Assembly (NCBI GenBank): GCA_963674755.2
Contig: CAXXVS010000001.1
Location: forward strand, 832,001 to 896,000
Direction: 5' to 3'
DNA from: Desulfobacterales bacterium
GTDB taxonomy: Bacteria > Desulfobacterota > Desulfobacteria > Desulfobacterales > UBA5852
Length of the DNA stretch: 64,000 nt
Shown here: positions 33,467 through 51,246 of the stretch, in pieces
Numbering within the stretch: position 1 is the first letter of the stretch
Layout: the number at the start of each line of letters is the position of its first letter
Made by a program: the position numbers and the translations under genes
The notes under the pieces: model-generated
Database searches by the model: none
The model's input: the letters and a program-made list of their open reading frames with translations, nothing else
Told to the model about the DNA's origin: nothing

Positions 33467-33610
33467 AGTACCCATCCAGAAATGGCATCTTTTGGCCCCT
33501 GGCGGCGTTCTCGCCTCCTGTCGATCCTCGGCGTAGCCGGGCTACGCCTGTGGGCGCCAGTTTGCTGCGGCCTTGCCAGAAACCAAAATCTACCACCTCT
33601 GGATGGGCAC
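33467..33610. repeat. Hairpin element, family C (arms agtacccatccagaaatgg / ccacctctggatgggcac)
   Basis: Near-identical to 50930-51113; core ggcgtt..ggcgtagccgggctacgcct..gccttg. Confidence 0.85.
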
Positions 33611-33689
33611 CGACTAGACAACAAGGCAACAGCCATTTTACCATGAATTGCACGAAGGGAGTACCATAGGACGTAGCAAGAAGGTGAAC

Positions 33690-33925
33690 GAGTTTGTTGG
33701 GTTTATTGAGTTGATAACGTTTATTGGGTTAAAACCGTGTGGGTGGTGCGTTGTATGTGGTGGGGCGTTGGTAGTGCGTTGTGGGGTTTAGATGGGGTTA
33801 TTGCCTTATCTACCCACGACCCACAACCTGCTTACCACGATCTTCAAAAACCCAACCAACTCAACCAACCCAACCAACCCAACCAACCCAACAAACTCGA
33901 CAAACTCAATGAACTCAACAAACTC
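33690..33925. repeat. Nested inverted micro-repeat hairpin (outer 9-mer AACAAACTC/AACCAACCC units, inner 7-mer CCCACAA units)
   Basis: G/T-rich left arm is the reverse complement of the C/A-rich right arm. Confidence 0.8.
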
Positions 33926-38810: not shown

Positions 38811-39860
38811 ATGAGTCCTCACAAGGTACAACAAAAAGCTCCGACCATTATTGGTGCAAGTCAGGCGATCGAGAGAATCCGTGATCTGATTGCCCATGTG
38901 GCCGATACCGGCCTCAATATTCTGATTTGCGGGGAAAGCGGGGTGGGCAAAGAGGTTGTCGCCCAGAACCTTTACCAACAATCCCCCCGCAACCACCGGC
39001 CGTTTCTCAAAATCAACTGTGCGGCACTCCCCGACGGGTTGCTGGAAAGCGAGTTGTTCGGTCACGAGCAGGGCGCGTTTACCGGGGCAGAGCGCAAGAA
39101 GCGCGGGAAATTCGAGCTGGCCAATGGCGGGGTGCTCCTGTTGGATGAAATCGGCGATATGTCGATCGCCCTGCAGGCCAAACTCCTGCATGTCCTGCAA
39201 AGCGGCGAGTTTTCACCGCTGGGCTCCGAAAAGGAAGTCCACACCGATACCTGGGTGCTGGCGGCCACCAACCATGAGCTGGAAGAGGACATCCGCAAGG
39301 ACAAATTCAGGGAAGACCTTTATTACCGGCTGAATATCATCAAGATCCTCATTCCGTCTCTGCGGGAACGGCCGGAGGACATCCCGCCGCTCATCGAACA
39401 TTTCGTCAACGAGTACGCCTACCAATTCCAGGCCGGACGCATCAACATACCGGCCAATGCTGTCATCGCCAAGCTTTGTGAATACCACTGGCCCGGGAAT
39501 GTGCGCGAACTGCAAAATATCCTCAAACGCGGGTTTGCCTTGGGCAACTGGGATGAAATCCTTGACGAGCTGTTCCGTCACGCGCCTGAACCCAGTTTTG
39601 CCATGCGCAGCAGCGCGCCCATGGGCAGGTCCTCATCGGTGAGCGCGCTCACCGGACTGGATTACCAAAATATTGATCTGGAAGATTTGTCGCTCAAGGA
39701 AATTACCCGGTCGGTTCAGGATCGGGTGGAGCGGGAGGTCATCACCTATGTGCTGGAAAAGACCGGCTGGAACCGCAGCAAAGCCAGCCGCATTTTGAAA
39801 ATCAGCTATAAGGCGCTGCTGTATAAGATCAAAGATTTGAATATCATCGTTCCCCACTGA
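38811..39860 (+). CDS. sigma54-dependent activator (AAA+ / Fis HTH) lacking an N-terminal regulatory domain
   Basis: [68 protein letters not shown]. Confidence 0.93.
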   Translation: MSPHKVQQKAPTIIGASQAIERIRDLIAHVADTGLNILICGESGVGKEVVAQNLYQQSPRNHRPFLKINCAALPDGLLESELFGHEQGAFTGAERKKRGKFELANGGVLLLDEIGDMSIALQAKLLHVLQSGEFSPLGSEKEVHTDTWVLAATNHELEEDIRKDKFREDLYYRLNIIKILIPSLRERPEDIPPLIEHFVNEYAYQFQAGRINIPANAVIAKLCEYHWPGNVRELQNILKRGFALGNWDEILDELFRHAPEPSFAMRSSAPMGRSSSVSALTGLDYQNIDLEDLSLKEITRSVQDRVEREVITYVLEKTGWNRSKASRILKISYKALLYKIKDLNIIVPH

Positions 39861-39988
39861 GGGACAGTTTCGTAAAACGCCCGATATCTGCGTTACGCTT
39901 CACCCCTCGTCGTTGCGGCGTACCTGATGTACACCTCTCTCCTCGCGGCTCGCAAGCCTTGATCTCGAACGTTTTACGAAATTGTCCC
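39861..39988. repeat. Hairpin element, core family B
   Basis: Arms gggacagtttcgtaaaacg / cgttttacgaaattgtccc; core tgcgtt..tgcggcgtac..gtacacct..gccttga; starts right after the activator stop codon. Confidence 0.85.
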
Positions 39989-40100
39989 TATGGGACACAG
40001 ATGTTCACCGCTGGCCCCTGAGGAATGCGCGCAAAAAATAACGAAGAGATGCCAATTCAGAAAAACACGATCCCGATTTTGATGAAAGGCTGTGTGTTTT

Positions 40101-40302
40101 GCCTCCAGCCTATAATCCACCCACAACACACAACCCACGGTTTTTAGCCAACCCAACCAACCCAATAAACCCAATAAACCCAACAAACTCAACAAACTCA
40201 ACAAACTCAATAACCCCATTGAACCCACCACTCACAGCTTTTACCTACAGCCTAATAGCCGACCACCTGCCATACCCCCATTTTCTTCATGACCTTCATG
40301 GT
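40101..40302. repeat. Block of micro-repeats (CAGCCTA, CCCACAA, AACCCAATA/AACTCAACA, CTTCATG units)
   Basis: Same unit types as at 33690-33925 and 42040-42345. Confidence 0.75.
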
Positions 40303-40310
40303 AAGTCTCT

Positions 40311-40703
40311 CTATTGGTCGTTATTGCCCGAATAGCCGCTGCCCGGTGTCCCAGGAACGTCCTCCACGGGTTCGACCCTTTCCGAGATGAGGGTCAACAA
40401 ACGGATGATTTCGCGATTTTGCTCGATGATTTGATCGTATTTATCCGCCAGTTCCCCCTGACGCGACAGCATTTCCTGGTTTTGCTGATAAATAAGCCCC
40501 ATGGAGCGCGTCGTATAGAGCGCTCCCAAGGCCGCTTGGCGCGTGGGGTAATCGGTTCCCACCGAACTGTTGGGTGCGGGAACCAGGGCTTCATAATCAT
40601 TGTCCATGGACTGAATCAGCTCTTCCATGGGGTCGGCGAATACGTAAACCGCGGCTGATAGTACGGCTAAGACCATTATCAACATCATGCTTCGTTTCAT
40701 CAT
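40311..40703 (-). CDS. Hypothetical exported protein with C-terminal coiled coil, last gene of the T2SS operon
   Basis: Signal peptide (..AVYVFA), GGAG RBS, heptad-like QQNQEMLSRQ..IIEQNREII. Confidence 0.7.
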   Translation of the reverse strand: MMKRSMMLIMVLAVLSAAVYVFADPMEELIQSMDNDYEALVPAPNSSVGTDYPTRQAALGALYTTRSMGLIYQQNQEMLSRQGELADKYDQIIEQNREIIRLLTLISERVEPVEDVPGTPGSGYSGNNDQ

Positions 40704-40809
40704 AGCTCCCGAATGGTTAAATAGTGCTCATCCATAAATGGCATCTTTTGGCCCCGGCCCGCCGCCGGCGGACCGGGTCCCTGAATAGAGATAAGTCCAC
40801 CTTTTTTCA

Positions 40810-41301
40810 TCATTTCCCCGGCACATAGATAAATGTCCAGTCCTCATAGGTTTTAGCCGTTTCAAACCCCTTGTCTTCTTGGCTGAAATTCCCCACTTTT
40901 AAAGGCTCACCCTGGCTGGCGCTACGAACCCCTTTGATCCTTTTTGAGGCATCCAATACATAGACCCAATCGCCGTCGCGGGTCATGGGGTCGGGATACC
41001 ACTTGCGCAGGTACCGTTTGAGATTCGGATAGCGGGGATCCTTCAGCAGATCGCTGAATTGGCGTGGGTAGGTCTTGCTTTGCCCTCCGGGGGGATTGTT
41101 GTAGTAGGCGGCGATGGCGTTGCGGATCTGATCCCCGCGATAGAGGAGTTCGGCCTCGCGTTCCCGTTTGGCAGTGGTGCTCCAATAGCGCCCGGCGCCG
41201 AGGAGGGCGACGCTCATGACGGCGACCAGGATCAGCACCCCCAAATACGAAAACCCTGATCGGTTGCGCCAGAGGGCCAAGCTCGGCGTTGCACGGCGCA
41301 T
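40810..41301 (-). CDS. T2SS minor pseudopilin lacking Glu5 (GspK/PilX-like); start uncertain because the frame stays open to 42036/42210
   Basis: Prepilin site RNRSG|FSYLGVLILVAVM; REREAELLYRGDQIRNAI..YP..LLKDPR..RYLRKWYPDPMT. Confidence 0.85.
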   Translation of the reverse strand: MRRATPSLALWRNRSGFSYLGVLILVAVMSVALLGAGRYWSTTAKREREAELLYRGDQIRNAIAAYYNNPPGGQSKTYPRQFSDLLKDPRYPNLKRYLRKWYPDPMTRDGDWVYVLDASKRIKGVRSASQGEPLKVGNFSQEDKGFETAKTYEDWTFIYVPGK

Positions 41302-42036
41302 CTCGTCGCTGCGGCGTACTGATGTACGCCTCGTTCCTCGACGCTTGTGCGCCTTGATCTTGGCCCTCTGGCGCAACCGATCGGCGATATTTGAGAGTAG
41401 GAACTTGAAATTTTGGCCGCTGGTATTCTGCGCAATCATTTGAGAATATTCACTGCTCGGCGTTGCACGGCGCATCTCGTCGCTGCGGCGTACTGATGTA
41501 CGCCTCGTTCCTCGACGCTTGTGCGCCTTGATCTTGGCCCTCTGGCGCAACCGATCGGCGATATTTGAGAGTAGGAACTTGAAATTTTGGCCGCTGGTAT
41601 TCTGCGCAATCATTTGAGAATATTCACTGCTCGGCGTTGCACGGCGCATCTCGTCGCTGCGGCGTACTGATGTACGCCTCGTTTCTCGATCCTTGTGTGC
41701 CTTGATCTTGTCCCTCTGGCGCAACCGATCAGCCGTATTGATGAGCAGGAGCGTAAAACTGTGACCGTTTATATTCTGTGTAATCGCGGGCGTGTAATAA
41801 CAGCCCTGTGTTGCACGGTGCGCCTCGTCGTTGCGGTGTACTGATGTACGCCTCTCTTCTCGGGGCTTGCGCGCCTTGACCTTGGCCTTATGGCGAAACC
41901 ACTCTGCGGAGTTTGAGGGCAAGTGAACAACACTGCCCTGGCCTTGAGCGCATTGCACAATCGTTTGGTGGTACGGGTTAGCCGGCGTTGCACAGCGCAT
42001 CTCGTCGCTGCGGTTTATGGGTGTACGACGCCTCAT
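41258..42036. repeat. Tandem array of five copies of the family-B element, period 174 bp (last unit 177 bp)
   Basis: Unit starts at 41281, 41455, 41629, 41803 and ~41980; the first two units are identical and distal ones diverge; the first copy has perfect 24-bp arms (41258-41281 / 41359-41382). Confidence 0.95.
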
Positions 42037-42039
42037 GCT

Positions 42040-42345
42040 TTTATAGGCTATAGGTGGGTAGGCTGTTGGGGAAAGCGTTGCGTTCATTGAGTTTTTTGGG
42101 TTTGTTGAGTTGTTGCAAATTAGGAGGGCGGGGCACGTAGATGAAAGGCTGTAGGCTGTTAGCCTATTAGGCTGCAGGCTGTATGGGATAGACCTGGAAA
42201 TTATTGACATTTGGTTAACTTAAGTCTTCTTGGAATCGTCGCTAAATCCAAAGCACCAGTAAACACAACGAACCCAACAAACTCAATGAAACCAACAAAC
42301 CCAACAAACCAAATCCCCTCAACAAACTCGAATTTTCCTACAGCC
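42040..42345. repeat. Nested inverted micro-repeats (TAGGCTG and TTGAGTTTG units against AACTCAACA and CTACAGCC)
   Basis: G/T-rich left part complementary to the C/A-rich right part. Confidence 0.7.
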
Positions 42346-42375
42346 GAACGGGCTTCAGTCTATCCCCCTGTCTTT

Positions 42376-42750
42376 TTACCATTCATTGTAAGGGGTGCCT
42401 TCCAAACTCACCTTATGGCTGCCGCTGTGGACGTCATAGACATTGCCCTCGGCAAAGCCCTCCGGTGGGATGGTAATCCAGGTGTCGGAACTTCCGGTAA
42501 AAGGGTCTATCGGGATTTGGCGGATGTACTTGTCTGTTTCCAGGTCCTGGAGGCTGTCCGGGTAGCGGCCGTGGTCGGCGTAATACTGGTCAATGGTGTC
42601 CCGCAGGATGAAAAGGGTGCGGTGCAGGTTGGTTTCCTTGGCGCGGATCAGGGATCGTTGAAAACTGGGCATGGCTATGGTGGCCAGGATACTGATGATG
42701 GAGATGACGATCATCATCTCGATCAGGGTGTACCCTTGCCTGTCTCTCAT
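42376..42750 (-). CDS. T2SS pseudopilin (GspG-like)
   Basis: MRDRQG|YTLIEMMIVISII; IDQYYAD.G.YP..L, IPIDPFT, YDVHSGS, GTPYNEW. Confidence 0.92.
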   Translation of the reverse strand: MRDRQGYTLIEMMIVISIISILATIAMPSFQRSLIRAKETNLHRTLFILRDTIDQYYADHGRYPDSLQDLETDKYIRQIPIDPFTGSSDTWITIPPEGFAEGNVYDVHSGSHKVSLEGTPYNEW

Positions 42751-42807
42751 TGTTGTAACGCCGTACGTTTTGATTGTGTTAGTGTACATTTAAAGACTTT
42801 TTTATGG

Positions 42808-43051
42808 GACGCAGATGAACACAGATAGACACAGATGTTTGCTTATAAATACAAAAAAGATTTAACCATGAAGAACTTGAAGTTCATGAAGAAATCAATT
42901 TGTCTATGACAAATTGATTTGCTCAAGGAAAAATTCGTTTATAGCATTTCACCTCATGGGGCGAGATCTTTGGGTTTCGATATGTTTCTTCAAGTCCTTC
43001 ATGCTCTTCATTGTGGAAACGGGTTTGTTAAATCAGTGAAAATCCGTGTTC
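42808..43051. repeat. Three-layer nested hairpin of micro-repeat arms
   Basis: Outer ACACAGAT units / atcagtg..atccgtgttc; middle accatgaagaacttgaagttcatgaag / cttcaagtccttcatgctcttcattgt; inner aatcaatttgtc-tat-gacaaattgatt. Confidence 0.8.
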
Positions 43052-43070
43052 AGCAACTCTCTATTCACTT

Positions 43071-43559
43071 TCACCAATCCCGGTAATAGGTTCCGTCCAG
43101 CGCCTGCTCCTCGCTTTGGGAATAGACGTCGTAGACATCCTGCCCCCCCCAGATGTCGCTGCCCGGGCTGTCGACATAGGAGCGCAACCCCCATTCCCCA
43201 TCTTCAGTCATGGGATCCTTGGGGATCCGGCGCAGGAACTTGAGCTTGATGGGATCGGGATCGTTGCTGTCGACACCTTCCACCAGGATGTCCAAATTGG
43301 GTGGATAGCCGGTGCCGTCCACGGTAAGCGCAATGCGCCCGTCGTCCACCATTTTTTTGTATTGATCAATGGCGTCCCGAATGATCCGCAGATTCTGGCG
43401 CAGTTCGATTTCCTTGGTGCGTTTGTAGGTCATCACGGAAAGGGGCAGGATACCACTCACCAGAATGGTGAGAATCCCCATGGCGACGATCAGCTCGATC
43501 AAGGTAACGCCAGTTGCATTGCGGCCAGCGCCGCCGCCTATCAGCTGCCGAGGGCCCAT
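43071..43559 (-). CDS. T2SS pseudopilin (GspG-like)
   Basis: NATG|VTLIELIVAMGIL; KEIELRQNL..IRDAIDQY, FLRRIPKDPMT, DVYDVYS, DGTYYRDW. Confidence 0.92.
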   Translation of the reverse strand: MGPRQLIGGGAGRNATGVTLIELIVAMGILTILVSGILPLSVMTYKRTKEIELRQNLRIIRDAIDQYKKMVDDGRIALTVDGTGYPPNLDILVEGVDSNDPDPIKLKFLRRIPKDPMTEDGEWGLRSYVDSPGSDIWGGQDVYDVYSQSEEQALDGTYYRDW

Positions 43560-48059: not shown

Positions 48060-48203
48060 AAGGCGGCTTCGAAAAATGTCCAACCCACCCAAGGCGGGTA
48101 AATATCTGCGTTGCGCGGCTCTCTGCGTCACTGCGGCGTATTGGATATACGCCTCGTTCCTCGAATTTTGCGCGCCTTGATCTTGAATAGTTTACAAAGC
48201 CTT
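48060..48203. repeat. Hairpin element, core family B
   Basis: tctgcgttgcgc..ctgcggcgtattggatatacgcctcgttcctcg..gcgcgccttgatctt; arms partly degenerate. Confidence 0.8.
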
Positions 48204-50929: not shown

Positions 50930-51113
50930 AGTGCCCATCCGTAAATGGCATCTTTTGGCTCCTGGCCCGCCGTCGATGGATCAATCCATCTTTGGCGGAC
51001 AAGTCGGCGTTCTTGCCTCCTGTCGGTCCTCGGCGTAGCCGGGCTACGCCTGTGGGCGCCAATCGGCTGCGGCCTTGCCAGGAACCAAAATCTACCATCT
51101 CTGGACGGACATT
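50930..51113. repeat. Hairpin element, family C
   Basis: agtgcccatccgtaaatggcatcttttgg..ccaaaatctaccatctctggacggacatt; near-identical to 33467-33610 plus an extra internal hairpin. Confidence 0.85.
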
Positions 51114-51126
51114 ACCAATGGTTGTC

Positions 51127-51246
51127 GGTTTCGCTAAATGTCCAACCCGCCAGAGGCGAGTAAATCTCTGCGTCCCTCGTTATTGCGGCGTACGAAAGTA
51201 CACCTCATACCTCCGAACGCGAGCGCCTTGACCTTTTTTGGAAACC
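51127..51246. repeat. Hairpin element, core family B (degenerate)
   Basis: ggtttcgctaaa..tctgcgt..ttgcggcgtacgaaagtacacctc..gcgccttgacc..tttggaaacc. Confidence 0.7.

Follow-up and report, generated by a model that had tools for sequence, protein, structure and literature searches.

A hairpin repeat array in frame with a minor pseudopilin of a Desulfobacterales bacterium and its probable translation as a cleavable leader

The window, a stretch of 64,000 nucleotides, carries on its minus strand a gene for a minor pseudopilin whose reading frame continues, beyond the predicted prepilin peptidase site, through five tandem copies of a hairpin element. We propose, with a probability of roughly 0.68, that this repeat lies in a class III leader, where it would be translated as a hypervariable Arg-rich extension and then removed by prepilin peptidase.

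Sequence comparison shows that a gene-less hairpin of ~125 bases, widespread in this phylum, inserted in an ancestor of the genus 1–2 codons before Gly-1 of the pseudopilin. The mature domain needs Gly-1/Phe+1, and the hairpin has left no conserved accessible start before that site. According to our proposal, ribosomes would have to start upstream and read through it. Because the resulting leader is hydrophilic and rich in Arg and Lys, it would stay in the cytoplasm and be cut off by prepilin peptidase, in keeping with class III biology, leaving a normal pseudopilin. The peptide being discarded, selection would be confined mainly to an open frame and the lack of a membrane anchor, and the leader sequence would be near-neutral. 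Polar tandem duplication would add units, those of 3n bases would persist, and lineage-specific leaders of ~40–320 residues would result.

The pseudopilin gene and the array above its cleavage site

The gene is the third pseudopilin of a Pul-type cluster in which a secretin gene is followed by the pseudopilins, and which also contains PilM-, GspM- and GspE/PilB-like genes. Two pseudopilin genes with the N-methyl motif precede it, downstream of the secretin gene (42376..43559, minus strand; Pfam PF07963, PF00263), and give GspG-like NCBIfam matches below the cut-off. The mature protein (40810..41253, minus strand) has 147 residues, starts Phe-Ser-Tyr and is without Glu5. The Pfam N-methyl motif had no match in it, nor did Foldseek return a match for the mature protein in the PDB at E<=0.001. 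An AlphaFold model of the mature part (pLDDT 82) has an N-terminal helix of 50 residues, and in a wide structural search the 7 best matches were all pilins or pseudopilins, at weak scores (Z 4.9–6.3, rmsd 2.8–4.2). The pseudopilins of the Geobacteraceae Pul system are named PulG, OxpG and TklG in the available part of the source (PMC3543383), and gene order would make the present protein TklG-like. Divergence from the relative G004 (pN 0.06, pS 0.33) indicates purifying selection on the gene. The pseudopilin is followed by a gene of 130 residues (40311-40703) that seems to encode a signal peptide and has no Pfam or NCBIfam match.

Gly-1 (41254..41256, minus strand) is the predicted prepilin peptidase site, and the genome has one A24 prepilin peptidase gene. 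Gly-Phe-Ser-Tyr occurs at 11/11 loci of the clade with synonymously varying codons, and ~21 hydrophobic residues (hydropathy 2.0–2.4) follow Gly-1 in every case. These residues bear on an annotation found in some assemblies, where gene callers choose a leaderless start at TTG 41244, three codons into the mature protein: the database proteins P0009, P0011, P0018 and P0022 begin there, and a purine patch precedes the codon. Such a start is nevertheless extremely improbable, since the codon is not TTG in 3/11 loci, Gly-1, Phe+1 and Tyr+3 vary synonymously only and must therefore be translated, and Phe+1 and Tyr+3 are invariant across 35 aligned proteins. Gene callers truncate or mis-start such pseudopilins, and 4 database entries are without the cleavage site.

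The five copies above this site start 174, 174, 174 and 177 bases apart, and Tandem Repeats Finder reports a period of 174 at 41281-41900 (3.6 copies, 88% matches). As originally predicted, the array contains no stop in the pseudopilin frame, which is open on the minus strand for 322 codons above Phe+1 (ORF 40810-42210). Copy 1 (41258..41382) is a complete hairpin element whose gene-side arm encodes the leader's last residues; 41258-41284 pairs with 41356-41382 over 27 nt at 96% complementarity, and the hairpin folds at about -86 kcal/mol on the mRNA strand. Linker 1 (41383..41455) is followed by copy 2 with linker 2 (41456..41629), which consists of core and distal arm without the gene-side arm, by copy 3 with linker 3 (41630..41803), and by copy 4 with linker 4, which has one codon extra (41804..41980). 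Copy 5 (41981..42038) is a truncated half element covering model positions 29–82 of 130; truncated distal copies like it are also seen in G005 and G010.

Two further points of the original prediction held, namely that only the proximal copy has both arms and that divergence is polar. Identity to the proximal copy falls from 100% in copy 2 to 95% in copy 3 and 82% in copy 4, linker 2 repeats linker 1 exactly, and drift is seen in linkers 3 and 4. The description of the unit as element plus linker is correct as far as it goes; the linker, however, is not unrelated DNA, since local alignment against shuffles detects, in 7/7 linkers, the decayed remains of an arm from an earlier copy of the element (p 0.0005–0.04).

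The duplication is probably real and unlikely to be an assembly product, because the identical unit collapses at about twofold depth in short-read contigs from two studies. In run X1, possibly the source of the window, the collapsed-unit contig has a depth of 36.4 as against 15.5–16.8 in the flanks, and in run X4, from a separate study, 24.6 as against 11.7. Units 1 and 2 are identical and no contig listed spans the array, as an assembly artefact would have it. Against this stand not only the depths but also the divergence of units 3–5 and the independent arrays of G004 (spacing 174, 174, 174), P0008 and P0005, and we give an artefact a negligible chance. The joint in run X4 looked like an in-frame deletion of 390 bases; it is in register and may be an ancestral junction as in P0008.

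The reading frame in relatives and the start of translation

The pseudopilin gene was found in 37/401 genomes of the order, for 7 of which no locus was fetched. Outside the genus the element was absent from the locus (0/25 fetched loci); there the gap from the upstream stop is 4–114 bases (24 loci where it was located), and the leaders, of ~5–37 residues, often start on or just past that stop. Within the clade, the element is present at 11/11 distinct loci, always at one position, with its anchor 66 bases from Phe+1. These loci comprise the window, four genus genomes and six metagenome contigs, after removal of duplicates (L016, L019 and L029, equal to G005; L018 to L017; L025 to L024; L028 to G004; L030 to G010) and of L022 and L023, which end at or near the cleavage site. 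Comparison of these sequences places the insertion in the ancestor of the genus.

Leader length and copy number both vary among the relatives, a check that had been proposed at the outset, and the outgroups are short and element-free. Copy number ranges from one full copy, as in several orthologues, to the five of the window. Element-encoded leaders of 16–206 residues also occur in 31 database proteins, with independent arrays among them (P0005 has three units of 34 residues, and the leader of P0008 reaches 206 residues), although as gene predictions they are biased to open frames and 6 represent the same loci as the 11. All 11 leaders are without a hydrophobic segment (maximum 19-residue hydropathy <=0.95, as against 2.0–2.4 for the mature N-terminus), and they contain 15–30% Arg plus Lys. 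Searches of Pfam and NCBIfam with the leader gave sub-threshold matches only. According to the available part of PMC10191384, class III leaders vary in length, remain cytoplasmic under the positive-inside rule and are cleaved after Gly.

If the leader is translated, its frame should be kept. Frame-breaking versions in relatives had been named as evidence against the extension. The frame is open through the proximal element in 11/11 loci, whereas the same register is open in 12/40 of the other complete copies (Fisher p 6e-5 when the window is omitted, although kin are not independent; 3/44 complete copies without the anchor were excluded). This is so despite indels in the central loop that move the distal half between two frames. 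Above Phe+1 the open run extends for 49–322 codons across the 11 loci. In non-repeat DNA (the nearest 150 bases, after masking of elements and duplicates and without the window), the pseudopilin frame has 8 stops in 398 codons (2.0%), compared with 15–23 in each of the five other frames (4.8%; binomial p 0.003). The open frame has an ATG among its first 8 codons in 8/11 loci, as against 32/291 control segments. L020, which keeps an ancestral-type start overlapping the upstream stop, is open over all 310 intergenic bases and G010 over all 390, and the only in-frame ATG of G005, L021 and L026 lies 154, 99 and 48 codons upstream, respectively.

Spacings are multiples of 3 in 6/7 multi-copy pseudopilin loci as against 7/18 arrays elsewhere, a weak contrast. 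A dN/dS-type comparison between units, also proposed at the outset, gave a mean pS of 0.60 and pN of 0.35 for the linkers. By chance, a set of six distinct linkers would lack stops in ~3% of cases, and the two distinct linkers of G004 alone in 44%, which is unremarkable. L026 and L027 are open for just 49 and 53 codons, and L005, L017, L026 and L027 are not significant singly (shuffle p 0.2–0.7). All the loci are kin from a single insertion, so that the p values overstate, and the window was chosen for its open frame. Taken together, the openness of the element, the depletion of stops upstream, the early ATGs and the 3n spacings argue that the frame is probably selected. Its conservation in relatives makes the long Arg-rich cleavable extension of the original prediction probable, but not the start at 42036 that went with it.

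In the window's genome, the likeliest start would be the ATG at 42085..42087 (minus strand), giving a leader of 278 residues; ATGs inside the array may also serve. It has no Shine-Dalgarno match, and indeed none of the starts in this genome has a good one. We prefer it to 42036 because the same Met and the residues following it begin P0008, P0013 and P0020, and because no other start is as exposed (unpaired fraction 0.89–0.94); 42036 lies in sequence that is absent from these close homologues. The first ATG of the open frame (42208..42210, minus strand; leader of 319 residues) is an alternative, and its homologue in G004 meets a stop after 9 codons. Stops also separate the G004 homologue of the 42087 ATG from the array, and the sole in-frame ATG of that relative lies inside unit 2, 74 codons up. 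No start is common to all lineages among the 11 loci, and a scan for promoters and terminators gave no excess over shuffles. A 9-base A/C-rich tandem and other low-complexity intergenic repeats surround the operon (33844-33925, 40150-40218, 42077-42111, 42261-42310), and one of them provides an unstructured stretch before ATG 42087.

The frame could also be open by chance, with the array as non-coding repeat junk and a short leader starting in the gene-side arm, at TTG 41280 (-9) or ATG 41301 (-16) (41278..41301, minus strand). Both candidates lie within the hairpin. TTG is found at -9 in 10/11 loci, outgroup leaders are short, the element is stop-poor (12/40 copies are open in the same register), and 3/7 other arrays in the genome likewise have 3n periods. 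The TTG, however, belongs to the family consensus, is paired in the 24-pair stem (unpaired 0.30) with no Shine-Dalgarno sequence, and is CTG in L026. As for ATG 41301, which had been put forward as the competing start, it occurs in 3/11 loci and Met-16 in 6/31 element-bearing proteins. Since, in addition, the depletion of stops reaches into non-repeat upstream DNA, we regard the short leader as rather unlikely.

The hairpin element elsewhere and its possible roles in RNA

A profile search of the window's genome (G000) found 85 distinct copies of the element, and BLAST detected it in 13/13 genomes of the genus and in 21/150 other genomes drawn from the phylum. It is a rod of ~125 bases, with fixed inner motifs and outer arms that vary from copy to copy yet remain complementary, a covariation that holds across 44 complete copies genome-wide. 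At the pseudopilin locus the better-folding strand is the mRNA sense, with more G-U pairs there. Rfam covariance models run over 39500-43500 gave no match (best E 1.1). The internal loop below the central stem (41305-41335) has A-C and G-G oppositions that resemble the symmetric loop of SRP RNA and K-turn boxes; Rfam gave no such match.

Going by a rough gene caller, 32 of the 59 copies with a gene-side arm adjoin a stop codon and 11 point towards the start of an opposite-strand gene, while an open frame spans an element copy in only two other genes. The commonest context is represented in the window by a dispersed copy (39862..39986, plus strand) joined directly to the stop codon of a gene for a sigma-54 activator. 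At this and 31 other stop-codon copies the stop of the upstream gene is either provided by the gene-side arm or is the point where that arm begins, and the strand that folds better is the antisense one with respect to that gene. The copy at 48061-48202 and 9 others sit just 5' of the ribosome-binding site of an opposite-strand gene, including the PilN-like gene of the cluster. Ten copies in this genome other than the pseudopilin one face a gene start; in 9/10 a stop falls within or beyond the element, and most have a purine-rich patch and a start codon downstream of the stem. The pseudopilin cannot use a start below the stem, because there is no room between hairpin and cleavage site.

Seven other tandem arrays are present in the genome, with periods of 168, 141, 123, 157, 115, 292 and 152 (3/7 divisible by 3). 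Only the gene-side copy is complete in 6/7 of them, and the distal copy is truncated or decayed in 3. Polar arrays are thus a general habit of the element and not special to the pseudopilin gene. This bears on the original suggestion that the element was domesticated as the leader, which is not borne out: the leader peptide is conserved in neither length nor sequence and arrays arise at many other loci, so tolerance is the simpler account. Neither the array nor the hairpin is unique singly; what stands out is the reading frame.

Of the gene-side arm, later units of the arrays retain just the innermost ~5–10 bases, and their junctions lie at a near-identical point of the element (for example C2:1709593-1710222, C2:1908270-1908820, C2:2492307-2492871 and C3:729702-730413). 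The coincidence of junctions across different arrays points to duplication at a specific site rather than to random slippage. Further hairpin families (for example 33530-33640 and 51030-51140), which together make up a superfamily, have the inner motifs in common with the element and differ from it in their arms. Variants of ~145 bases with a nested mini-hairpin occur at 48061-48202, C3:899267-899411, L091 and L093; by eye, the mini-hairpin resembles one beside tRNA-linked small GIY-YIG genes. Such genes (L091, L092, L093) adjoin tRNA-like sequences and duplicated tRNA 3' fragments.

Searches of element neighbourhoods revealed no mobilising enzyme. The 13 matches to Y1 transposase in G000 each lie at least 4.5 kb from the nearest copy, no full copy flanks the small GIY-YIG genes at any of the 4 loci inspected, out of 5 in this genome, no gene was found between distant arm pairs within 3.5 kb, and the neighbours of 8 copies (from 5 low-copy genomes and 1 viral contig) had no gene in common by eye.

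The other original suggestion was that the array is an RNA switch, in which the upstream copies of the arm would vie for pairing with one downstream arm and thereby gate translation. The arms of copies 1–3 are each complementary to the gene-side arm, and pairing with unit 2 costs just 4.0 kcal/mol. When the folding check was run, however, the gene-side arm paired with the nearest arm at a probability of 0.96 whether one, two or all units were present. It was paired in all cases; the unpaired fraction of the -9 region changed from 0.30 to 0.31–0.37 and that of the -16 region from 0.46 to 0.31. Forcing the arm onto unit 2 or unit 3, at a cost of 4.0 or 13.5 kcal/mol, respectively, exposed no proximal start. 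Competing arms that are equivalent cannot free the arm for which they compete. Additionally, arrays joined to stop codons, which have no start to gate, show the same anatomy with one complete copy, and several orthologues have a single full copy. We consider a switch highly improbable.

It is also conceivable that the element is read through as we propose, but that the hairpin was co-opted and retained to lower the output of the minor pseudopilin, either by slow unwinding or by double-strand RNase cutting in the absence of ribosomes, with copy number as a means of tuning. The element is kept at all 11 clade loci. Its stem is near-perfect in 9/11 of them while the gene-side arms are only 52–93% identical to that of the window, and 16/24 outer pairs have changed on both sides (10 aligned rows, two of the same locus; 0/500 shuffles). 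Between G000 and G004 the element is 94% identical, whereas synonymous sites differ by 33%. On the other hand, covariation across the 44 complete copies makes it a property of the family, with arm-to-arm repair as a possible cause; G010 and L026 have lost part of the stem, the 25 outgroup loci do without the element, and upstream copies leave predicted accessibility unchanged. A dampening role is, in our view, unlikely.

The long cleavable leader remains our preferred reading, and neither the switch nor domestication is needed. A wider reading, which we hold to be possible but doubtful, is that the leader is a safe harbour without practical length limit, from which a working pseudopilin is made with leaders of 100–320 residues, and that the element is an undescribed structured nucleic acid, strand-specific and found phylum-wide, which duplicates in a polar manner by a mechanism of its own and at this locus has been recruited to control how much of the minor pseudopilin is made.

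If the long leader is real, prepilin peptidase would process leaders ~10x longer than those of the outgroup orthologues, which would bear on the targeting and recognition of class III signal peptides. The cleaved leader would also be a natural experiment, translated junk under little selection beyond that for frame. A leader of up to ~300 residues, where ~5–40 is usual, would surprise pilus specialists. The repeat family, in which 24-pair arms covary around fixed inner motifs and arrays are polar, is not represented in Rfam, and no mobiliser was found for it.

Comparison with known systems

In a literature search whose scope took in few subscription journals, we found no report of repeat-built prepilin leaders and no relevant description of the repeat in this phylum. 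The comparisons that follow refer to those parts of the cited papers that were available.

In description, the element is closest in kind to Rickettsia palindromic elements (RPE) and intragenic REPs (PMC10969869, PMC3733652), dispersed palindromes of ~125–150 bases that lie in frame and are read as peptide, and of which N-terminal RPE-1 cases are said to be expressed. The in-frame position is shared (11/11 clade loci, 0/25 outgroup loci). What is absent here is frequent insertion into many unrelated genes: nearly all other copies are extragenic, with 32/59 at stops and 11 facing starts. Unlike RPE, the insert lies in a leader that is expected to be cut off, and it has grown in tandem to ~260 codons, whereas REP clusters in the intragenic survey encode 43–82 residues (PMC10969869, PMC3733652).

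The multicopy palindromes of Geobacteraceae (Gmet_R1005, PMC2700814; an intragenic family, PMC2996986) are likewise deltaproteobacterial intergenic hairpins, with a central palindrome of 7 pairs. In roughly 70–80 copies of this genome the central palindrome agrees with the one printed for a family of Geobacter metallireducens (PMC2700814), and their flanking motifs are similar to those of the element. The array element itself differs in central stem and arms, so that, judged on the printed motif, it is a sister family at best; a motif search of the supplementary material within reach gave no match. The available text of these two papers describes no fusion to a leader (PMC2700814, PMC2996986).

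REP/BIME sequences with TnpA-REP (PMC3333891) also form hairpins at stop codons and amplify locally in tandem, with variable linkers and copy number. Here, in contrast, the unit is much longer, the arrays are polar with one complete copy, and no Y1 transposase match in G000 lies within 4.5 kb of a copy. The Ssn GIY-YIG enzymes with their NTS/SRM (PMC11893778) have multicopy hairpins in common with the present case, but no full copy of the element flanks the four small GIY-YIG genes inspected in G000. Set beside MITEs, the element has arms that covary copy by copy, and no gene between arm pairs within 3.5 kb.

The leader itself is best compared with the class III type 4 pilin leaders (PMC10191384, bioRxiv 10.1101/459388), which are also hydrophilic and variable in length, end in Gly and are followed by a hydrophobic stretch. 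The absence of Glu5 is shared with tip-capping minor pilins (PMC10191384, bioRxiv 10.1101/459388). The published class III leaders, however, are of 8–18 residues in the parts of these sources available (PMC10191384, bioRxiv 10.1101/459388), whereas those proposed here would be of 40–320 residues and built from a repeat.
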